64,000 nucleotides of DNA from an uncultured virus (IMG/VR IMGVR_UViG_3300035126_001036) (lineage: Duplodnaviria > Heunggongvirae > Uroviricota > Caudoviricetes): positions 1-64,000 of IMG/VR virus record IMGVR_UViG_3300035126_001036. The stretch is one strand, 5' to 3'. Shown here one piece after another: positions 755 to 51,684 of this stretch. The notes under the pieces are model-generated. The model did not search any database, was not told the origin of the DNA, and saw nothing but the letters and a program-made list of their open reading frames with translations. A program made the translations under genes and the position numbers. Each line of letters opens with the position of its first letter. Positions within the stretch are counted from its first letter, which is position 1.

Positions 755-1792
755 ATGCTGAGACGTAGTGCGTTGCTGGCAGCAACGAATAGTGGTGGAC
801 CGCCGGGGTTTGGGGTCAAGTACACGAATCCTGCAACTCTGCCTACGGGCACCGGCTTCGGTGTTGCATTTTCCCCTGCTGGTGATACTATTGCAGTGGC
901 TCATTTCATCTCCCTATTTATCACCGCCTATCCCTGGTCAGCATCTGGCTTCGGCACAAAGTACACGAATCCTGCAACGCTGCCTACGGGCGCTGGCTGG
1001 GACGTTGCATTTTCTCCGGCTGGTGATGCTATTGCAGTGGCGCATAACAGCTCTCCATTTATCACCGCCTATCCCTGGTCAGCATCTGGCTTCGGCACGA
1101 AGTACACCAATCCCGCGACGCTGCCTACGAGCACCGGCTTCGGCGTTGCATTTTCTCCGGCTGGTGATACTATTGCAGTGGCTCATGGCATCTCTCCATT
1201 TATCACCGCCTATCCCTGGTCAGCATCTGGCTTCGGTACGAAGTACACGAATCCTGCAACTCTGCCTACGGGCGACGGCCTCGGCGTTGCATTTTCTCCG
1301 GCTGGTGATACTATTGCAGTGGCTCTTAACAGCTCCCCATTTATTACCGCTTATCCCTGGTCAGCATCTGGCTTCGGCACAAAGTACACGAATCCTGCAA
1401 CTCTGCCTACGGGCACTGGCTGGGGCGTTGCATTTTCCCCTGCTGGTGATGCTATTGCAGTGGCTCATGATAGCTCCCCATTTATTACCGTCTATCCCTG
1501 GTCAGCATCTGGCTTCGGTACAAAGTACACCAATCCCGCGACGCTGCCTACGAGCACCGGCTTCGGTGTTGCATTTTCCCCTGCTGGTGATGCTATTGCA
1601 GTGGCTCATGGCAGCTCTCCATTTATCACCGCCTATCCCTGGTCAGCATCTGGCTTCGGCACGAAGTACACCAATCCCGCGACGCTGCCTACAGGTGACG
1701 GCGTTGGCGTTGCATTTTCTCCGGCTGGTGATACTATTGCAGTGGCTCATGGCAGCTCTCCATTTATTACCGCCTATCCCTGGAACTCCTAA
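755..1792 (+). CDS. 7-bladed beta-propeller (WD40/YVTN-like) repeat protein, probable receptor-binding/tail-associated
   Basis: 17-aa leader plus seven 47-aa repeats (last one 46 aa) of GFGTKYTNPATLPTGxGxGVAFSPAGDxIAVAHxxSPFITAYPWSAS. Directly downstream of the tail fibre gene. Confidence 0.75.
   Translation: MLRRSALLAATNSGGPPGFGVKYTNPATLPTGTGFGVAFSPAGDTIAVAHFISLFITAYPWSASGFGTKYTNPATLPTGAGWDVAFSPAGDAIAVAHNSSPFITAYPWSASGFGTKYTNPATLPTSTGFGVAFSPAGDTIAVAHGISPFITAYPWSASGFGTKYTNPATLPTGDGLGVAFSPAGDTIAVALNSSPFITAYPWSASGFGTKYTNPATLPTGTGWGVAFSPAGDAIAVAHDSSPFITVYPWSASGFGTKYTNPATLPTSTGFGVAFSPAGDAIAVAHGSSPFITAYPWSASGFGTKYTNPATLPTGDGVGVAFSPAGDTIAVAHGSSPFITAYPWNS
806..1789 (+). repeat. Seven 141-bp tandem repeats
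   Basis: Units start at 806, 947, 1088, 1229, 1370, 1511 and 1652; DNA is near-identical. Confidence 0.95.
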
Positions 1793-2058
1793 TGAACAAG
1801 CTCTCCATTCTAACCGCCGCCCTTGAAGGCCGCGATCACGAACTGCTCTCCTATCAAATCAACATCGACAACTACCGCCTGGCCATCGCCAAAATCAACG
1901 CCGACCACGCCGATAACGATGATTTGCTTTCATTCCGTGATGATCTGCAGGCTCGCCTTGACGAAGAACTCCACCAGCAGCTTCGCGCTCGCATCATCCG
2001 CGATGTGATCGCGGAGCAAATTGCCGAGCTGTCCACCCAGGAGGAACTCATCTCATGA
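1792..2058 (+). CDS. hypothetical protein (GC-rich tail cassette)
   Basis: 88 aa, overlaps both neighbours, GC-rich codon usage. Confidence 0.7.
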   Translation: MNKLSILTAALEGRDHELLSYQINIDNYRLAIAKINADHADNDDLLSFRDDLQARLDEELHQQLRARIIRDVIAEQIAELSTQEELIS

Positions 2059-2624
2059 ACTACGTCCACATCGCTGCAGACGGTCAGCCCGAGTACCCTT
2101 ACAACCTCTGGCAGCTCCGCAAAGCACACCCCAACATCTCATTCCCCACTGAACCCACCCCGGAAGACCTGGCGCCCTTCGACGTCTTTCCGGTCACCAT
2201 CAACCCTCAGCCCGATGGTTACGACCACCGCCTGCAGATCGTTGAGCAGATCCCGCCAACCATCACCGCTGATGGCTGGGTGATCAATTGGGCACTGCGC
2301 GACACCACCCCAGAGGAACAGGCCAGCTACGACGCTGCCCACACTCCCGAACCCCAGTGGATGGGTTTCGGTATCGAGCTGGCGGTTAACCCCGCCATCA
2401 CCGAACTGTACGACAGCATCCCCACCGCACTGGCCAATGGCCTGAGCATCGGCCTGTCTGAAGCCAGCAAGGGCGACACCCGCTTATTCATCGGTTTGTG
2501 GCAGCGAGTTTTAGCCACTGGTGGGGTTTCTCCCGAGCTACTGGGAGAAATCGGCGCTCTGGCCCATCAGTTCAACCTGCCGACCAGTTTCGTTGCTCAG
2601 ATGATGCCACCGAACAATGAATAA
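2055..2624 (+). CDS. putative tail fibre assembly/chaperone-like protein
   Basis: N-terminal YPYNLWQLRKAHPNISFP motif of the kind seen in tail-assembly proteins; position after the fibre and propeller genes. Function inferred. Confidence 0.5.
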   Translation: MNYVHIAADGQPEYPYNLWQLRKAHPNISFPTEPTPEDLAPFDVFPVTINPQPDGYDHRLQIVEQIPPTITADGWVINWALRDTTPEEQASYDAAHTPEPQWMGFGIELAVNPAITELYDSIPTALANGLSIGLSEASKGDTRLFIGLWQRVLATGGVSPELLGEIGALAHQFNLPTSFVAQMMPPNNE

Positions 2625-2662
2625 CCGCAGTGATCCGAAAAAATCTATCGGTTTACTAAACT

Positions 2663-2670
2663 TATAAATA
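2663..2670 (+). promoter_or_regulatory. T4-type late promoter TATAAATA
   Basis: Exact T4 late consensus about 20 nt upstream of ATG 2692. Confidence 0.7.
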
Positions 2671-2691
2671 AACAAAACTTATAATGTCCTC

Positions 2692-3672
2692 ATGAATTTC
2701 GTTAAATATGCATTGGAGAATGGTGGAACAATTAAACCTCTACTTATAAACCCAGAAGACCTTTCGGGACCATCAATCACAAATCCTTCTGTCTTCATTT
2801 ATCAGAACAGAATATTAGTCAATCTTCGTAATGTAAATTATACATTATATCACGCAGAACTCAATCGGTTTGAGCATATGTGGGGTCCATTATCCTACAT
2901 TCATCCAGAAAATGATATGCACCTGAGAACCACAAATTACATTGCAGAACTAGATGACAATATAGATACGGTTCACTATTCAAAAATAGATACTTCAGAC
3001 TTTGATACCTATCAACCACAGTGGGATTTTGTGGGCCTTGAAGATGTTCGGTTAGTAGAATGGAATGATAAACTCTATGGTATTGGTGTTCGCAGAGACT
3101 TAGACGACAAAGGAACCGGAAGAATGGAAATTAGTGAATTTCAGATTTCTGATTATTCGGTCAAAGAAGTTTTTCGTTATCGTATTCCTGGACCCTCCCC
3201 AGATAAAGAATACTGTATGAAAAACTGTACTCCAATTCTAGATAAACCTTTTCATTTATTAAAGTGGTCTAATCCCACTGCACTAATGAAATTTGATATT
3301 ACTGGAAAGGAAACAGAAGTCTTTCAAACTGACCCAAATCCTACTCTACAAACTGACCTAAGAGGTGGTTCTCAGGTAATTCCTTATAAAAACGGATACT
3401 TATCACTTCTTCACGAGACACATCTTTATAATTCAGAACAGGGAAGAAAAAACGCGACTTATCGCCATCGGTTTGTAATTTGGGATAAGGAATTTAAACT
3501 TCAAAAAGTATCAAAATTATTTTCGTTTATGAATATAAAAATTGAGTTTTGTTGTGGTCTTGTAGAATATAAAAATGATTACTTGATTACTTTTGGTGCT
3601 CAAGATAATGCTGCTTATATTTTAAAAGTTTCTAAATCATTTGTGGAGGATTTTATTCATGAACAAACTTGA
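2692..3672 (+). CDS. predicted glycosidase/phosphorylase-like five-bladed propeller (GH130/GH43 clan-like)
   Basis: Motifs NPSVF, GLEDVRL, KNCTP, LRGGSQ, YRHRF, IEFCCGL, ITFGAQD. Confidence 0.6.
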   Translation: MNFVKYALENGGTIKPLLINPEDLSGPSITNPSVFIYQNRILVNLRNVNYTLYHAELNRFEHMWGPLSYIHPENDMHLRTTNYIAELDDNIDTVHYSKIDTSDFDTYQPQWDFVGLEDVRLVEWNDKLYGIGVRRDLDDKGTGRMEISEFQISDYSVKEVFRYRIPGPSPDKEYCMKNCTPILDKPFHLLKWSNPTALMKFDITGKETEVFQTDPNPTLQTDLRGGSQVIPYKNGYLSLLHETHLYNSEQGRKNATYRHRFVIWDKEFKLQKVSKLFSFMNIKIEFCCGLVEYKNDYLITFGAQDNAAYILKVSKSFVEDFIHEQT

Positions 3673-5551
3673 AGGACTTCCAACTATTCATTACATTAGT
3701 TTAGAAGAAAGCCTAGACAGAAGAACTAATTTAGAAAATTGGTTTCAAAAATATAATATAACAAACTATGTTCCTCATTTATTCAAAAGATTTGAAAATT
3801 ATAATCATAATTTAATCGGAACAAATGTGCATCTTTTGGCGGAACATTCAAAAGGTCCGATTACTTCTCATTTATGTTTACTCAGGGAATTATACGAGAC
3901 TTATGATGATGAATATTTTTTGATTGTTGAAGACGATTTGTCTTTAGAAACTGTTGAACACTGGAACTTTACCTGGAAGCAATTCTATCAAAATCTTCCT
4001 AAAGATTGGAATGGTATTCAATTAACTATTGTAAGAGAATATAATGTTAAAGCGTATTCTTTTGAAGAAAGAAGAGATAAAGACTGGTGTGTTGCTGGGT
4101 ATTTAATAAAAAGAAACTATGCAAAATATCTCTTAGACTTATATTATTTTGATACTGATTTTAATCTAAACACTAGTTTTATTCCTGTAGTTGAGGACGT
4201 ATTATTTTTTCATACTAATCCAAACATATATTGTTTTCCTTTATTTGTTGAGGATTTTTATAATGCAAAATCAACTTACAGAAATCCAGAACTGGTAGAT
4301 GATTGTCATCATAAATCTTATCGTAATGTTTTAAATTGGTGGGAAAATAACGGTAAAAATTTAACTATTAATCAAATAATGAATACACAACTTAATCACA
4401 TTTATCAAGAACCTCAATTTGGAGAAAATTGGTTTTCATATCCAAATCTGTATAGGAAAATGATTGAAAAATTCCCATCAGGTTCCAAGTTTGTTGAAAT
4501 TGGTTCTTGGAAAGGAAAATCTTCCGCATTTATGGCAGTTGAAATTGCAAATTCCAATAAAAACATTGAGTTCTATTGTGTAGATACTTGGGAAGGAAGT
4601 GTAGAGCATCAAGATATAGACGATTTAAAATCTTTATATGACACATTTAACCAAAATATGATGCCTTTAAAAGGCTATCATATTCCTTTAAGAATGACTT
4701 CACTTGAAGCGGTAAAAACTTTTGAAGATAAGTCTTTAGATTTTGTTTTTATTGATGCTTCTCACGAATATGAAGACGTGAAAAAAGATATTATTTCTTG
4801 GTTGCCTAAGGTAAAACCAGGTGGAATTATTGCCGGACACGATTACTATCTTAATGGGACTGACTTTTTCCCTGGAGTAAAGCAAGCGGTTAATGAAACA
4901 CTAAAAATTGATGAATTAGAATTTTCTGAAGATTGTTGGATGTATAAAGTAAAATCTATATCTAATGAATTAATAGAATATTCATTAGATACTGAAAATG
5001 CGGAAAAAAATTATAATCTCGCAAAGTGGTATGAAAGTCAGGGTCATACTGCACCAGCACATATCTATTACTTGAGAGCAGCAGAAAGAAGTGAAGATAA
5101 TCTTTTGGCATACTCCGCATTAATTCGTGGGTCATTCTGCTATGGGGCACAAAAATCAAGAGATTCTAGTGAAAAAGTATTACTAGAAAATGCTCTTGTG
5201 TTGCTACCCAAAAGACCCGAAGCATATTATTTTCTTTCGTTGATATATGAAAGAAAACAAGAATGGCAACATTCTTACATTTATGCAACACTAGGTCTAA
5301 ATTGCTATGAAAATAACGATGAATGCATAAACATTAATATTCCAGAATATTCCGGGAAACATTTGCTTATTTTTCAAAAGGCAATTTCTTCTTGGTGGTG
5401 GGGAAAAGGAGATGAAAGTAGAGGACTTTTAGAATTATTATGCGATAATTATTGGAATGTTTTAGATGTGAAACATAAATCTTTAGTCGAAGAAAACGCA
5501 AAAAAAGTTGGAGCAAAATTTGAAAAAAGACTGCATTTCAACTTTCAGTAA
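3659..5551 (+). CDS. multidomain glycosyltransferase family 25-like + class I SAM methyltransferase (Methyltransf_24-like) + TPR protein
   Basis: N-term YISLEESLDRR...SHL...IVEDD (GT25-like); central VEIGSWKGKS...FIDASHEYEDV...GGIIAGHDY; C-terminal TPR-like helices (PKRPEAYYFLS). Start taken at ATG 3659. Confidence 0.75.
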   Translation: MNKLEGLPTIHYISLEESLDRRTNLENWFQKYNITNYVPHLFKRFENYNHNLIGTNVHLLAEHSKGPITSHLCLLRELYETYDDEYFLIVEDDLSLETVEHWNFTWKQFYQNLPKDWNGIQLTIVREYNVKAYSFEERRDKDWCVAGYLIKRNYAKYLLDLYYFDTDFNLNTSFIPVVEDVLFFHTNPNIYCFPLFVEDFYNAKSTYRNPELVDDCHHKSYRNVLNWWENNGKNLTINQIMNTQLNHIYQEPQFGENWFSYPNLYRKMIEKFPSGSKFVEIGSWKGKSSAFMAVEIANSNKNIEFYCVDTWEGSVEHQDIDDLKSLYDTFNQNMMPLKGYHIPLRMTSLEAVKTFEDKSLDFVFIDASHEYEDVKKDIISWLPKVKPGGIIAGHDYYLNGTDFFPGVKQAVNETLKIDELEFSEDCWMYKVKSISNELIEYSLDTENAEKNYNLAKWYESQGHTAPAHIYYLRAAERSEDNLLAYSALIRGSFCYGAQKSRDSSEKVLLENALVLLPKRPEAYYFLSLIYERKQEWQHSYIYATLGLNCYENNDECININIPEYSGKHLLIFQKAISSWWWGKGDESRGLLELLCDNYWNVLDVKHKSLVEENAKKVGAKFEKRLHFNFQ

Positions 5552-12556: not shown

Positions 12557-13523
12557 TTGAACCAGCAGCAAAAATTTATTTATGAGACCATCGCACAAAT
12601 TGAAGACATTCTTTATGATGCGGAATACGATCTCGGATCTGATTCAGTCATCTATAAAAAAACCAAAGATCTTCTTTCTTTCGTAGAAAATTATCAAGAA
12701 GAAAACGAATGAGATTCACAGTTGTTTACAAAATTCCAAAACATAAAAAAGAACAGAAAGCCACCTTTCTGAATATTGAAGATTCCTTCAAATGGGAAAA
12801 TCATGTAAAAGAAAACCTTAAAGCCTACGATCTAAAAATTATTCCATCTTAGGAGAATTTGTTTATGCTACCCACTTTTGTAGAGTCCGAAATTCGCATT
12901 GTTGATGTTGACATTATTCTTGAAGAAGACGGGTACTATTCTGTAGTCACCTATTCTGATGGGAAATTTGATGAGTTTGGCCCTTATGATTCTTATCAAG
13001 AGGCCGAATCGGCTGTTTACTAAATACAACTAACCCACAAAAAGGAGGGAACACCATGGAAACTCAGGTCATTGAGAAAAAGCAAGATTGGGAATATCTT
13101 GAGTACCTTAATAGGGACGTAGAGGAAGAAGAAAATGAAGAGCCTTGCTATCCAGAATTTGATGACTGGGCACGGTGACAATTGAAGAACTGTCCACTAA
13201 TGGATAAAAAAGCAAAAATGCCTGTTAGGATCAAGAGGTCTAGAGAGAAGCTATCATCTTCTCTGATTGACGAACTTCTAGAGACTGATATTTTTCAGTC
13301 ATCTGTCAAGGAAGAATTATCTTTAGAAGTAAAACAACTTCTAAAGGACTTTTAATTTATTATATTTGGAGTTATTTTTATGAACGCACAAGAAGCAATG
13401 GCGATTATTCGCTCTGGCAAAAACGGCAGTCAAATTCTAGATCTTCTAGATAAGATTGTTTCTCTTTCCGATGTTGAAGAAACATCGTCAGAGGTTTCTG
13501 AAGAGATTGTGTTTGCCGACTGA
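12557..13523 (+). CDS. run of very short ORFs below the track cut-off (e.g. 12557-12712, 12709-12852, 12865-13023, 13057-13178, 13380-13523)
   Basis: Read manually; RBS-like GGAGG/AGGAG/GGAG upstream of several; lie between palindromic boxes at 12474, 13174 and 13519. Confidence 0.55.
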
Positions 13524-13599
13524 CACTTTTTAAACTGTCCACCGTATGCCCATTCTATTCGTAGGATGGGCTATTATTTTGGAAGTTCACTAAAGACTT

Positions 13600-14070
13600 A
13601 TGACTTCTAAATCTCAACTGCAAACCAAAATTCAAGAACTGGAAGAAGAAATTTCTTCTTTTAAACAACAACTGAATAACTACAAAGAGACACCAACCAT
13701 CGAAACCGCCAAAGTTGGTGATGTTCTAGAAGACGGTTGTATTGTACTCAAAAAAGAAAATGGTCTCGCTCTTTTGGTGGCCCCAGAATCAACCGAGGTT
13801 TATGTTACTTGGAGTAAAGAGTTTTCAACAGTATTCAAGAAACTAGAAGAACAAGGATTTAATCCTTCTCAGTTCTTTATTCCAACCATGGATCAACTTA
13901 ATCTTGCCTATAAGACCATTCCTCAACACTTCGCCAGCACCGGCTATTGGTCTTCTATAGAGTTCACTGCTACTCTCGCTTGCGGCGTGTTCTTTAATGT
14001 TGGCAGTGCGTACCGCGGCACTAAGACGCTTACGTGCTGCGTGCGTGCCTTCCGGTGTGTTACTTATTGA
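13600..14070 (+). CDS. small coiled-coil + CLec/DUF1566-like protein, candidate DGR target (copy 1)
   Basis: C-terminus YWSS.E...A..V.F..G......K.....VRAFR matches the C-type-lectin-fold signature of DGR variable proteins; paralog at 50952. Confidence 0.75.
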   Translation: MTSKSQLQTKIQELEEEISSFKQQLNNYKETPTIETAKVGDVLEDGCIVLKKENGLALLVAPESTEVYVTWSKEFSTVFKKLEEQGFNPSQFFIPTMDQLNLAYKTIPQHFASTGYWSSIEFTATLACGVFFNVGSAYRGTKTLTCCVRAFRCVTY

Positions 14071-14259
14071 ACCTTGAATTTTGATACTTGATACTTAAGC
14101 AAAGTTATGAAATCATATTCAGCCCACTCGGACACCGAATTCTACGAGACAGACAATTTAAAAGAGGCAATTGAAGTTGCCCAGTCCATGGCCGAACATT
14201 TCGGCTCATCATACGTCATAAACAACCAAACTAACGAAATTATTGAGAGGTTTTAAAAA

Positions 14260-22060: not shown

Positions 22061-22654
22061 ATGTATGTAACTTTAAGGGAGGCAAGAAAACAACTAGGAC
22101 TTCATCCAAATACCCTTAGAAAGTATGCCGATGAGGGGATTATTGAAACAATAAAAACTCCATCTGGACAACGAAGATTCAATGTTGAATCTTTTATAAA
22201 ACAAAAACAAAATAGTTTACAAACAATTCTTTACTGCAGAGTTTCAAGTGCTAGACAAAAAGACGACCTCCAAAATCAAAAAAATTATCTCATCTCAAAG
22301 TACCCAGGAGCAGAGGTTATTATTGATGTCGGCTCTGGACTCAATTTTAAACGAAGAGGTTTGCGTTCCATTTTGGAACGATTATTGCAGGGAGATTCAA
22401 TCCAACTTGTGGTTGCCCAGCGTGACCGACTTTGCAGATTCGGATTTGACCTCATTGAATATCTCGTCGTTAAAAACGGTGGAGAAATCGTGGTTCTCGA
22501 TCAAATCGAGCACAGTCCAGAAGGAGAACTTGTATCCGACATCCTTTCTATCATCCATGTTTTCTCTTGTAGAATACATGGGATGCGAAAGTATAAAAAT
22601 CAAATCAAAGAAGATAAGGATTTACCCAAACCAAACTCAAAGACAAATCCTTAG
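22061..22654 (+). CDS. tnpA: IS607 serine recombinase/transposase
   Basis: MerR-like HTH (LGLHPNTLRKY...TPSGQRRF), YCRVSS catalytic motif, DVGSGLNFKR, DRLCRFG. Confidence 0.95.
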   Translation: MYVTLREARKQLGLHPNTLRKYADEGIIETIKTPSGQRRFNVESFIKQKQNSLQTILYCRVSSARQKDDLQNQKNYLISKYPGAEVIIDVGSGLNFKRRGLRSILERLLQGDSIQLVVAQRDRLCRFGFDLIEYLVVKNGGEIVVLDQIEHSPEGELVSDILSIIHVFSCRIHGMRKYKNQIKEDKDLPKPNSKTNP

Positions 22655-23735
22655 ACAATGGTTTGGTGCATCAAGATACACTTATAATGAAACCGTTAAG
22701 TTTTTAAAAGAACCAGATACTAAGGCATCTTGGAAATCAATAAAAACTGGTTTGATTCATTCTTTACCCGATTGGGCGGAAGAAATTCCTTATCAAATTA
22801 AATCTGTTGCCGTAAGAGATTGCTGTAAGGCAGTTTCTATGTGTAAACGAAAAAATAGAGGAATTCCACCAGAAGATTGGCATGAAGTTAAATTTAGAAG
22901 CAGACGTGAACCAAAACAAACAATTTACGTTCCTAAGACTTCTATATCTAAAAATGGTGTTTATCACACTATTTTAGGGAAATTAAAAATGAGTGAAATG
23001 CTTCCCGACAACATTATGGATTCAAGATTAACATTAGATAATGGTAGATACTTTTTAATAATTCCTTACGAAGAAAAAACAATTCCATGTGAGAACCAAG
23101 CAAGAGTTGTTTCTTTAGATCCAGGAGTTAGAATATTCCAGACATTTTATAACCCAGAATTTTCCGGGGCTATTGGTGATGGCGACATTGGTAGAATAAC
23201 CAGATTATGTTATCATCTTGATTCTCTAATCTCAAAACGAGATAAGTCTAAGTCTAGAAAAAAATATAGACTCAATAAGGCTATCAAACGAATGAGAAAT
23301 AAAATCAAAGATTTGGTCGATGAAATTCATCATAAGACTGCAAGGTTTTTGGTTGATAATTTTGATATTATTCTTCTTCCTTCATTTGATGTAAGTCAAA
23401 TGGTTAAAAAGGGTAAGAGAAAAATCAACTCTAAAACGACCAGATCTATGTTGACATGGGCTCATTATAGATTTAAGTGTTTTCTTAAAGACAAATGTGA
23501 AGAATTTAATAAGGTTCTTCTTATTGTTAATGAGGCCTATACATCAAAAACAGTGTCTTGGAATGGAAAAATTAATTACTCTTTAGGTGGATCTAAAGTT
23601 GTTAAAGACAAAAACCATTGTGTCCCTAGAGATATTAATGGAGCCCGAAATATTTGGGTAAAAAGCGTCTCAAGAATTCTTGAGGCTTTGGGAGATAGCC
23701 CCTCAAGTAGCAATACTTGTGCATTGTTAACGTAA
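22578..23735 (+). CDS. tnpB: IS607 TnpB RNA-guided nuclease with Fanzor-like rearranged RuvC
   Basis: KIRIYP HTH; RuvC-I LDPG; canonical RuvC-II Glu replaced (IILLPSF) with a Glu in VNEAYTSKT; RuvC-III RDINGARNI. Start uncertain: frame is open back to 22248. Confidence 0.85.
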   Translation: MGCESIKIKSKKIRIYPNQTQRQILRQWFGASRYTYNETVKFLKEPDTKASWKSIKTGLIHSLPDWAEEIPYQIKSVAVRDCCKAVSMCKRKNRGIPPEDWHEVKFRSRREPKQTIYVPKTSISKNGVYHTILGKLKMSEMLPDNIMDSRLTLDNGRYFLIIPYEEKTIPCENQARVVSLDPGVRIFQTFYNPEFSGAIGDGDIGRITRLCYHLDSLISKRDKSKSRKKYRLNKAIKRMRNKIKDLVDEIHHKTARFLVDNFDIILLPSFDVSQMVKKGKRKINSKTTRSMLTWAHYRFKCFLKDKCEEFNKVLLIVNEAYTSKTVSWNGKINYSLGGSKVVKDKNHCVPRDINGARNIWVKSVSRILEALGDSPSSSNTCALLT

Positions 23736-33256: not shown

Positions 33257-34456
33257 CTATTGATTTTCTAGACGCTTCAACGCAGACGCTAAATGATGTT
33301 GGACACCATTTAGACTTACTTCCGCTCCACGTCCGTAATCGACATACTCTGCCGATGTTAATTCTTGACCCGAAAGGTCTAACCACCCTTTTTTAAGGAT
33401 GTTGATAGAGGCATTTAAGTCTCTATCGCGATGAGAGCCACAAGAAGGACAAGTCCATTCACGAACACTTAAAGGCATCTTGTCTTCTTTATGTCCACAG
33501 TTAGAACAGGTCTTGGAACTAGGGTAAAATCTATCTATTTTGGTCAAAGTTTTTCCGTACCAATTACACTTGTATTCCAACATAGAAACAAAAGTAGACC
33601 AAGAGGCATCACTAATGGATTTTGCAAGTTTGTGGTTCTTTAACATTCCAGAAACATTTAAGTCTTCAACAACAATCAAATCAAATGTCTTAACAAGTTC
33701 TGTTGAAATATTATGCAAGAAATAATTTCTTGAGTTAGTAATGTTTTCGTGTACTTTAGCAACTTTAATACGTTGTCTATTATAACGATTACTACCTTTT
33801 TGTTTACGACTTAAATGTTTCTGTGCTTTTTTAAGTTTAGATTGGTTCTTTCTAAACCATCTTGGGTTATTGATGACTTGACCATTTGATAAAGTCATTA
33901 GTTCTTTTAAACCCAAATCAATACCTACTACTTTACCAGTAGAGGGTATTGGATTGAGTTCTTGTTGGACTAAAATTGAAACAAAATACTTTCCGGTTGG
34001 AGTTTTAGAAACAGTAATGCTTCTAAAATCGGCTTCTTCAGGGATATTTCGGTCCAGAACAATTTTGACCCAACCAATTTTTTCGATCCTTATTGAACAT
34101 TTTTCTTGATCAAGTTTAAATCTAGTTTTTTCTGGAAGCCTAAATGATTGTCTATTGGTCTTTTTCTTGAATTTCGGCTTTCCAAGTTTAACCTTCCTTT
34201 TTTTGTTAAAGTATTGTTTCTTAAACTCAACAAAATCCATTCTTTTTTGTTGAAGTGTTGATGCCGATACTTCTTTAAGGAACTCAAACTCCTCTTGGTC
34301 TTTTAGTGTTTTTTCATTTACTATGGTACCATCATTATTGTTGAAGTTTTCAACTAGTTTGTTCCACACAAACCTACAGCAACCAAAAGTTTTGGCAAGC
34401 AAAATTTCTTGTTCTTTTGTAGGATAAATCCTATACTTATATGCCTTTAATTGCAT
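33257..34456 (-). CDS. tnpB: IS200/IS605-family TnpB (solo, IS1341-like)
   Basis: KAYKYRIYPT HTH, GIDLG, IVVEDL, CSNCG/CPSCG zinc ribbon, RDLNA; no adjacent tnpA. The only substantial minus-strand gene. Confidence 0.92.
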   Translation of the reverse strand: MQLKAYKYRIYPTKEQEILLAKTFGCCRFVWNKLVENFNNNDGTIVNEKTLKDQEEFEFLKEVSASTLQQKRMDFVEFKKQYFNKKRKVKLGKPKFKKKTNRQSFRLPEKTRFKLDQEKCSIRIEKIGWVKIVLDRNIPEEADFRSITVSKTPTGKYFVSILVQQELNPIPSTGKVVGIDLGLKELMTLSNGQVINNPRWFRKNQSKLKKAQKHLSRKQKGSNRYNRQRIKVAKVHENITNSRNYFLHNISTELVKTFDLIVVEDLNVSGMLKNHKLAKSISDASWSTFVSMLEYKCNWYGKTLTKIDRFYPSSKTCSNCGHKEDKMPLSVREWTCPSCGSHRDRDLNASINILKKGWLDLSGQELTSAEYVDYGRGAEVSLNGVQHHLASALKRLENQ

Positions 34457-43849: not shown

Positions 43850-44626
43850 TTGACCACATTCAACCATTTTAATGCTATGATTAATCCATTAATTAAAATT
43901 CCACTTTTTTTAGAACTAATTAAATGTTCTAATGACCCAATTTATTTTATTAACAATTATGTGAAATTTTCTTCGTTTAAAGAAGATAATGCGCCTTTTC
44001 TTCTTTATCCCGCCCAAGAAGAAATTGTCAAAAAAATTCATAAAAACAAATACAATCTTATAAAGGCCCCAAGACAATTTGGCAAATCATCCGTTCCATT
44101 ATTCTATCTTTTACATCAGGCAATTTTTAAATCTAATTGCAATATTGTGATTAGTAGTTTTAGTTATCAAAATTCAAAATATTTACTTGAACGATTCTAT
44201 AATACATATGAACAGTTACCCGATTGGATTAAACCCGGAATAGTAAAAAGAACCTCAATGTGGATAATACTTAAAAATAATTCTAGGGTAAAAATAGTAA
44301 CAAATATTTCTGCCCCTGAAACTTGGGAGAATTGGGAATACACTCACGCATTCTTAGATGAGTTTGCTTTTATGGAATATTATACTTCTGAGAATTTATT
44401 GGGCTCTTTCTTTCATCGTAATAGCTCTCCTAAAATAATCATCGCAAGTACCAAAAAAGAAGGTAGTTATTTTAATGAAATAGTTGAAGATGCGAGGAAT
44501 GGTATAAACAAATATTCATTATCAGAATATGATTGGAGAGATATTCCTAGGCTAGATATTAATTGGAAGGAAGAAACGATTAAAAATATCAGAGAAGATG
44601 CCTTTAAAAGAGAATTTGAATTATGA
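43850..44626 (+). CDS. terminase large subunit (gp17)-like ATPase domain only
   Basis: KCSNDPIYFINNYV, LYPAQ, PRQFGKS Walker A, LDEFAF Walker B, IIAST, ending at FKREFEL*; no nuclease domain. True start may be ATG 43877. Confidence 0.75.
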   Translation: MTTFNHFNAMINPLIKIPLFLELIKCSNDPIYFINNYVKFSSFKEDNAPFLLYPAQEEIVKKIHKNKYNLIKAPRQFGKSSVPLFYLLHQAIFKSNCNIVISSFSYQNSKYLLERFYNTYEQLPDWIKPGIVKRTSMWIILKNNSRVKIVTNISAPETWENWEYTHAFLDEFAFMEYYTSENLLGSFFHRNSSPKIIIASTKKEGSYFNEIVEDARNGINKYSLSEYDWRDIPRLDINWKEETIKNIREDAFKREFEL

Positions 44627-50461: not shown

Positions 50462-50951
50462 GGGGAGGTGATGGCACGACCTTAGCCGAGAATGACACTT
50501 TAAGAACTGTCCACTTCTGACAAAATTCTAGAAATCCCTAGATACAATAAGATCAAATCAATTCAGGTTTCCAATGTCCCGCACCCATCGCCAAACTTCT
50601 TACAATAAATGTGCTCTTAGGAGCCCCAAAACCCTGAACGAAAAACGTCAAATTGATTCTTTTCTCACCGATGATGAAACTGTGGAGTTTCAGATTTCTG
50701 GTATGAATAGGATCAAAAATCGCCGGTCCATTCCCACACATCACGACGACAATGTTTGTTCTTCTTATTATGAGACTGATTATGACCACCACTGAAAAAA
50801 CTGCGTATTCTAAGTCTATGTTAGCAGATGCTGAAGATTTTCTCTGGAAAAACTTTGGTATCTCTGTAGGAACCCCCGATTATGAATGGCCTCAAGATCA
50901 AATCATCTCAGAGGCTGTAAAACGCGGCTGGAAATTTAGTTTTTATTGATT

Positions 50952-51422
50952 ATGACAACCAAAACACAACTTCAAACCAAAATTCAAGAACTGGAAGAAG
51001 AACTTTCTTCTTTTAAACAACAATTGAATAACTATAAAAACCATCCAACTATTCAAGAGGCATCTGTAGGTGACGTTCTTGAGGATGGCTGTATCGTCCT
51101 TAAAAAAGAAAATGGTCTCGCTCTTCTTGTAGCACCAAACTCAACCGAGGTTTATGCTACTTGGAGTAAAGAATTCCCTGAAGTCTTCAAGAAACTAGAA
51201 GAACGAGGATTTAATCCTTCTCAGTTCTTTATTCCAACCATAAATCAACTTAATCTTGCCTATAAGACCATTCCTCAACACTTCGCCAGCACCGACTATT
51301 GGTCTTCTACAGAGATTACTGCTACCATCGCTTGCTGCCAGGGCTTTAGCGGTGGTAACATCTTCAGCTTCATTGAGACGATCATGAACCGCGTGCGTGC
51401 CTTCCGGTGTGTTACTTATTGA
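50952..51422 (+). CDS. small coiled-coil + CLec/DUF1566-like protein, candidate DGR target (copy 2)
   Basis: Paralog of 13600-14070; ends YWSSTEITATIACCQGFSGGNIFSFIETIMNRVRAFRCVTY. Confidence 0.75.
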   Translation: MTTKTQLQTKIQELEEELSSFKQQLNNYKNHPTIQEASVGDVLEDGCIVLKKENGLALLVAPNSTEVYATWSKEFPEVFKKLEERGFNPSQFFIPTINQLNLAYKTIPQHFASTDYWSSTEITATIACCQGFSGGNIFSFIETIMNRVRAFRCVTY

Positions 51423-51684
51423 ACCTTGACACTTGAGGAACTGTCCATACTTCTGCCCGCACCACAAATGCGGGTTTTATAATATTTACAGTTAATCCAA
51501 ATTCAATGGACACCTTCGGATTTTATGATGCATCAAATTGGCCCCAAGATCCTAAACAAAACTCGGCTTGGAATGCCTATGCAAGGTCCACCACTCGGCG
51601 GTATCTTTCACCCGGAATCGCCCCTGAATGTTTTGTTGTAAGGCATCGTGGCTATAAGGGATACTACGTTTTTGGTAAATAAAC

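Follow-up and report, generated by a model that had tools for sequence, protein, structure and literature searches.

The window analysed here comprises 64,000 nucleotides, positions 1 to 64,000 of the uncultured virus record IMGVR_UViG_3300035126_001036 (G000), which is a linear viral contig of 138,809 bp estimated to be 56% complete. Two paralogous genes are located on its plus strand, gene 1 (13600..14070; protein P0001, 156 aa) and gene 2 (50952..51422; P0002, 156 aa), and the two proteins are 77.6% identical. Both encode an N-terminal coiled coil followed by a C-type-lectin (CLec) domain of the Lcl type, as derived for gene 1 from a predicted model and fold searches. Comparison with the paralog, the protein family and templates delimited a variable region (VR) in each gene. 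VR1 covers codons 115-147 (13942..14040, plus strand) and has a V-type framework (V130, A137), and VR2 (51294..51392, plus strand) has a Q-type framework (Q130, I137).

The nucleotide sequences of the two VRs differed in 32 of 99 positions (13942-14040) with no indels, and were flanked by an upstream arm of 51 nt (13892-13942) and a 3′ arm of 39 nt (14039-14077), both devoid of differences, exactly as tallied in the initial annotation. The VR differences were distributed over codon positions 1, 2 and 3 as 12, 13 and 7, and six of the seven at third positions were C/T. The preceding part of the gene (13600-13891) displayed an ordinary pattern relative to the paralog, with 30 of its 50 differences over 292 nt in third positions. 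GC content is 52.5% in the VR1 segment as opposed to 37.2% in the whole record, and A makes up 15% of the segment. An IMH-like end, to which we assign a putative IMH role, follows each VR on the plus strand (14041..14096 in gene 1 and 51393..51447 in gene 2). In gene 1 it consists of a GC-rich 15-mer, invariant last codons and, past the stop codon, a heptad-like T-rich tail. The end of gene 2 is the same up to position 51429, and its T-rich tail is shortened by the next promoter-like motif at 51428.

A third copy of the gene is located just past the window (65637-65798 of G000). It is internally deleted, with most of its middle gone, and the deletion brings coiled coil and VR together in different reading frames, leaving an ORF of 53 aa. 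The same deleted form was detected in the related record G002 (L012 1520-1681), and an intact one is present in G001 (68141). The IMH-like end and tail are retained in the deleted copy, so that it could conceivably act as a silent VR donor. The N-terminus of gene 1 also begins unrelated small ORFs in relatives: in L012 514-813 (G002) the first approximately 45 residues of the family are joined to an unrelated C-terminal part, and this type of junction was also visible as loose ends at 13729 in sequencing runs X6 and X9.

The AlphaFold model of the gene 1 protein, predicted from a 110-row alignment (pLDDT 92), displayed a coiled-coil-type helix in residues 4-27 (13609..13680, plus strand) and then a compact domain. 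The best solved-structure match was the C-terminal domain of Legionella Lcl (8q4e; Foldseek E 6.6e-6, Z 14.8, rmsd 2.5 over 118 aligned residues), and weak sequence matches to the Lcl domain (PF07603) were also found. Matches to the DGR proteins TvpA (2y3c, Z 7.4) and Mtd (1yu0, Z 6.0) were middling. The CLec fold proposed earlier for gene 1 is supported by these results, and the VR is located C-terminally within it. Four cysteines (47, 128, 147 and 153) are conserved in the family, and its YWSSTE motif also occurs in sequences that a Roux 2021 supplement (PMC8144416) labels as CLec2 reference targets. Although Lcl is the best structural match of the model, a shared fold shows no function; Lcl is a bacterial surface adhesin with a collagen-like stalk, whereas P0001 has a short coiled coil and no hydrophobic, signal or membrane segment (19-residue hydropathy maximum 1.2).

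Both genes are preceded by a repeated promoter-like motif, GACAC..AACTGTCCA ... TATTAT, which ends in a -10-like hexamer. It starts 78 nt ahead of gene 1 (13522..13577, plus strand), 458 nt and two small ORFs ahead of gene 2 (50494..50513, plus strand) and 81 nt ahead of the third copy. There were 35 such motifs in G000, all between 9.3 and 80 kb and 22 of them in the window (9345-63918), and none was found in the region of virion genes at 80-139 kb. The virion genes located beyond 80 kb are T4-like, and the names gp23, gp20 and gp17 used for this record and its relatives are those that we take the sequences to indicate. In the complete genome G001, 38 of 40 matches were within the first 100 kb, and in five of five tail-type targets examined the motif was absent upstream. 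Since it is limited to the non-virion part of the genome, the motif is considered a putative early promoter. All three family copies are found in the non-structural region behind this motif and not among the virion genes, and the surrounding genes encode nucleases, ligases and small proteins of no known function, in agreement with the non-tail location given in the initial annotation.

Homology to the P0001 family was established for 622 of 636 candidate clusters, and the family analysis was based on 122 proteins, namely the best 120 of the 622 matches and both window proteins. These 122 proteins contained 120 distinct VRs. In the 14 hypervariable VR columns (entropy of at least 2 bits) M, Q, K, E or W were found in only 2 of 1,697 residues, compared to 238 of 854 in 7 columns of equal variability elsewhere in the protein. 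AAY codons mutated at their adenines (NNY) cannot encode these five residues, and the depletion is therefore a sign of AAY templating. Position 130 of the framework was Q in 94 and V in 23 of the 122 proteins. When VR1 was aligned with the template of the related record G009 over codons 124-147, 19 of 29 adenines and 3 of 43 non-A positions were changed (p 1.4e-7), the latter three all being synonymous. Relative to the V-type allele at 68141 in G001, VR1 displayed 24 differences, of which 22 were on the 33 template adenines, and the AAY third positions were kept (13 of 13) in both; VR1 also carries a non-A change in codon 120. VR2 fitted the known templates poorly, the best of them leaving non-A mismatches in 10 of 42 core positions. 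Variation confined to adenines (NNY) was in this way found for VR1 relative to a related template, and for both VRs at the level of the family.

Judged from these patterns of variation, VR1 and VR2 are both DGR-written, and the DGR-type variable region suggested earlier finds support in the NNY signature of the family and in the adenine-limited changes relative to the G009 template. VR1 and the G001 68141 allele are evidently independent products of one V-type template, which is close to but not identical with that of G009. Gene 1, being V-type, and gene 2, being Q-type, are by the same evidence derived from two different templates, and their two frameworks account for the third-position differences between the VRs; of the two explanations offered initially, two templates or drift, the former is borne out. 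Cognate templates of VR1 and VR2 were not found in scans of viral contigs, metagenome contigs and prokaryote genomes with five DNA patterns, which gave only the template of the phage fragment G007 and unrelated CLec DGRs, nor by a short-motif search of the portion covered of the Roux 2021 TR/VR supplement (PMC8144416). The searches found no P0001 relatives among cultured phages, and neither relatives nor the template pattern in prokaryote genomes. The unrelated CLec DGRs caught by the pattern scan were complete (L077 879-2900 and L072), and L077 has an in-frame stop ahead of the final strand in both VR and template (table 11).

RT and Avd searches and an adenine-tolerant template scan detected no RT, Avd or template, neither beside gene 1, as had been noted before, nor anywhere else in the 138.8-kb G000 record. 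A template accompanied by an RT and Avd, which the initial annotation proposed to look for, is not found in this record. The record G001 is complete (249,820 bp, with terminal repeats) and matches 111 of 138 1-kb pieces of G000 with a mean identity of 97.3%; gp23 and gp20 are identical, and G001 is by these sequences a member of the same phage species. It contains three targets, but searches for RT, Avd, a template and genes of the DGR island were all negative, whereas the control G007 was positive. The template scan of G001 was made on 20-kb pieces, in which a copy spanning a cut could be missed, and the whole-record searches were made without cuts. Avd was not found in G000, G001 or G002, RT was found neither in the single own record (56% complete) nor in the two complete relatives (G001 and G005), and adenine-tolerant template scans of G000, G001 and G005 returned only paralogs.

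In the complete genome of G005 a decayed DGR was discovered at 169959-170647 (L216), consisting of a tail-type target, a frameshifted Avd stub and the next gene of the island, with template and RT absent. G005 also has three coiled-coil-type copies. The retention of its target with the machinery gone demonstrates that such loss occurs in this phage group. The position at which related phages carry their DGR, after a collagen-like fibre gene, is apparently occupied in the window by a module without any DGR gene (755..5551, plus strand), as delineated by synteny with G012. The G012 genes ahead of its DGR match G001 243636 and 248768 (47% for the latter), the following collagen-like gene extends into the window at 1-752, and the G012 DGR site appears to correspond to approximately position 750 of the window, although the last link consists of position and repeat type with no BLAST match. 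The module begins with a protein of seven 47-aa repeats (755-1792) that had no informative family match. In G001, a gene encoding 218 aa with a CLec tip (133516-134172, L201; YWSS-like...VRAF) replaces the third of three tandem cassette genes located at 127.7-130.1 kb in G000, only the first residues being common. The genes in the window do not constitute a complete DGR, but belong to a real family of DGR-written targets in an unusual setting.

The matching DGR lineage was identified by way of the conserved 3′ motif in G007, a phage fragment of 37.8 kb. Its cassette contains two targets, Avd (NF033474), an AAY-rich template and the RT, and a third target is located approximately 4 kb past the RT. 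The RT clade comprises 57 clusters with identities of at least 61%, below which there is a gap down to 44%. Five further records of the clade, four of them distinct, have the same layout, with the Avd position of G011 falling off its contig, and together with G007 they hold five distinct templates (G007, G009, G010, G011 and G012/G013). Seven targets deviated from their own templates by 0 to 2 non-A mismatches each. The cassette order is target-Avd-TR-RT, adjoining tail-fibre genes in related T4-like phages, and all six readable loci of the clade are in phage records. CLec domains of the tail-region targets are 31-41% identical to P0001. The GC-rich 15-mer at the end of gene 1 is also found in the G007 template, and in both window genes the last 30 coding nucleotides (codon 148 to stop) are the same as in target 3 of G007, the template being left at the same base. 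T-rich tails like that of gene 1 also follow the targets of G007, G009, G010 and G012 and are absent after their templates. The G007 framework is G127, L130 and T137, of which G127 was found in 0 and L130 in 1 of the 122 family proteins.

Close members of the coiled-coil family were found in none of the six readable RT-bearing records, which are fragments of 8-62% completeness. G011 contains a distant coiled-coil/CLec relative 2.6 kb from its RT (L106 3786-4259), whose tip lacks the NNY pattern and does not follow the template. The RT P0257 (74% identical to the G007 RT) and the targets P0037, P0053 and P0317 have the same longest-contig value, 227,278, and on the basis of these equal values a single contig of 227,278 bp probably holds this RT and the three family genes. 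The coincidence suggests remote targeting within the genome of a DGR-positive phage. A second coincidence, at 1,496 bp (P0047 and the RT fragment P0344), was dropped, as such short values match by chance.

P0001 and P0002 were each found unchanged on 14 contigs, and VR1 was identical in L001, L002 and L081. At least half of the words were present in 18 sequencing runs, four of which were examined by way of contigs, which drop rare variants; two RNA runs with only 8-10% of the words were left out. In the contigs of three of the four examined runs VR1 had no other letters, and in run X9 the letters of VR2 continued into the flank of locus 1 (at least 40 rows). Comparing locus 1 in G000 and G001, the flanks were 99% identical, while the gene body differed in 15 of 333 and the VR in 38 of 108 positions, V-type in one and Q-type in the other. 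Mosaic genes were found repeatedly: P0291 has the body of gene 2 with VR1, P0007 the body of gene 1 with a VR2-like region, and P0003 a start of gene-3 type with VR1. In the cluster P0277-P0290, on contigs of up to 280,688 bp, about four VRs recur on two body types. V-type cores on species-typical bodies with codons 113-115 unchanged were found in P0001, P0004, P0005, P0006 and P0008, and at least four independent V-type alleles are carried on the same body, whereas the Q-type alleles of this species have a common core and differ stepwise. Among 26 pairs of near alleles, which are non-independent, a test for 3′ polarity gave a mixed picture, the differences peaking at 144, 136 and 146 but also at 122 and 126. 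Some of the mosaics, in the protein databases as well as in the Logan contigs, may have arisen artificially from assemblies joined across the common arms. Overall, the VRs of this species look frozen and appear to move as blocks between paralogs and strains. The absence of a DGR from G001, the unchanged VR1 and the block-wise movement of VRs together indicate inherited and recombined alleles. The proposal in the initial annotation that both genes are targets of a DGR acting in trans stands as far as DGR-type targets are concerned; present action in trans finds no support in these three observations.

The origin of the two genes may be depicted as follows, with an overall probability of roughly 0.6. 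They would be dispersed early-type targets of a DGR lineage of T4-like freshwater cyanophages, kept in a species that lacks a DGR; their alleles would originate in relatives that possess one and be passed on by recombination. Judged by their signature, the C-terminal 99 nt were produced by retrohoming specific for adenines, with two distinct templates. The target-Avd-TR-RT cassette behind the tail-fibre genes can decay with its targets staying, as seen in relatives. DGR-positive phages would rewrite coiled-coil/CLec genes dispersed in their own non-structural region, to which the evidence points indirectly. Finished alleles, of which the mosaics are the visible trace, would enter DGR-negative genomes and move within them by homologous recombination, for which the identical arms of 51 and 39 nt could serve both in co-infection and between paralogs. 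The protein would finally be made early and in soluble form, its variable lectin face binding a host-specific partner. A broader version, which we put forward tentatively and regard as rather doubtful, is that the T4-like cyanophages of lakes draw on a common stock of DGR-written binding tips throughout the population. A minority with the cassette would diversify early non-virion coiled-coil/lectin proteins encoded far from it, and DGR-less phages would acquire the variants through recombination, or through use of the foreign machinery in co-infection, as adaptable intracellular binders of host factors or defences.

An unlikely course of events is that the genes in a DGR-negative genome are rewritten directly during co-infection, with RT, Avd and template RNA provided by a second, DGR-positive phage. 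The IMH-like end of gene 1 is that of targets with an intact DGR, the V-type cores listed above sit on species-typical bodies with unchanged codons 113-115, and plasmid-borne avd, TR and brt work in trans experimentally (PMC5758913). Against this, no known template framework matches exactly and that of G007 is not a family type, the same VRs recur on many contigs, and bodies differ alongside the VRs between near-identical strains, which is a prediction of recombination. Still less probable is that an ancestor lost its DGR and that only point mutation, selection and exchange of old alleles have acted since, with no input from a living DGR. G005 is an example of such a loss, and the stepwise Q-type alleles, the non-A change in codon 120 of VR1 and the deletion in gene 3 would fit; a nearly unblurred NNY signature in 120 distinct VRs of 122 proteins, the four or more independent V-type alleles on one body and the existence of a living RT clade, with its 57 clusters down to 61% identity, would not.

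That G000 has its own DGR in the missing 44% of the genome, the two genes then being ordinary non-adjacent targets, is improbable even though this record is linear and 56% complete, as the complete conspecific G001 has none, the syntenic site appears inside the window with another module in it, and two templates would be required. Service by a DGR in the host chromosome is very improbable: DGRs are reported from cyanobacteria (PMC7517822), but neither the template pattern nor any family member was found in prokaryote genome contigs, and wherever a locus of the matching RT clade could be read (six of six) it belonged to a phage record. Ordinary diversifying selection on the binding face of two paralogs, with no DGR at all, has a negligible probability. 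It could draw on the seven third-position differences between the paralogs, but these are accounted for by two templates, and selection by itself is refuted, as it cannot bar M, Q, K, E and W from the VR alone, nor limit changes to the template adenines of another phage. Writing in DGR-positive relatives followed by recombination is the preferred reading.

Similarities to known systems are evident, as are differences. The DGR of Bordetella phage BPP-1 (mtd-avd-TR-brt) resembles the present lineage in having a CLec target with a C-terminal VR, an AAY-based template, Avd and an IMH (putative here), this cassette anatomy being seen in G007. The BPP-1 Mtd is, however, a virion tropism protein encoded beside its cassette in a temperate phage, whereas the genes described here are in non-structural positions of a T4-like phage without a cassette. 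Several dispersed CLec targets are also known from the Treponema denticola DGR (TvpA), but there one template serves all targets in one chromosome, while here two templates are implied and none is in the genome. In the parts of Roux 2021 that were covered (PMC8144416), the RT type is clade 3 with adjacent targets PC_00117, which is viral, freshwater or aquatic and "Rare" (at least 12 rows), viral DGR targets are usually tail proteins beside their own RT, those of clades 1, 4 and 6 mostly so, and remote targets would escape the method of that survey. The PC_00117 targets resemble the present lineage in RT type, and the tail-region targets end in the same VR frame; they adjoin the RT, whereas genes of the coiled-coil family are scattered, follow early-type motifs and also occur in RT-less genomes. 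The DGR clade is already catalogued there; motifs of the coiled-coil target family were not found in the covered part of the Roux 2021 target and TR/VR files (PMC8144416). Wu 2018 (PMC5758913) places the non-adjacent targets of phages, with few exceptions, less than 50 kb from the RT, and Iyer 2021 (PMC7824862) reports FGS-type lectin domains to be lacking from its jumbo phages. A literature search, mostly of open-access sources, found no publication that deals with DGRs, or with orphan targets, of T4-like cyanophages. In more than 600 protein clusters, the DGR signature is here found in small, dispersed genes of non-structural type, including those of complete DGR-less genomes. If the preferred reading is true, DGRs reach further into lytic phage populations than RT-anchored surveys count, hypermutation in few genomes supplies many, and a phage-side variable binder may be at work inside the host.

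The host is probably a cyanobacterium. G001 encodes a SomB-type porin (NF033921), presumably of cyanobacterial type, G012 contains psbA and G005 a psbA fragment; no match to psbA, cpeT or hli was found in G000 or G001. From its location and the lack of a membrane segment, a role of the protein as an intracellular binder of a host factor, in takeover or anti-defence, is given about even odds. An accessory virion protein or surface adhesin is a lesser possibility, and some other role is less probable again. An early, soluble and variable binder fits an intracellular partner, but the conserved cysteines and the Lcl-like fold are compatible with a surface adhesin as well.

Two further observations concern the window at large. 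Two genes of a transposase family (phrog_506) are located at 22248-23735 on the plus strand and 33257-34456 on the minus strand. A second, short gene resembling the terminase large subunit was found in the non-structural region (43850-44626), the other one being at 116904 in G000.
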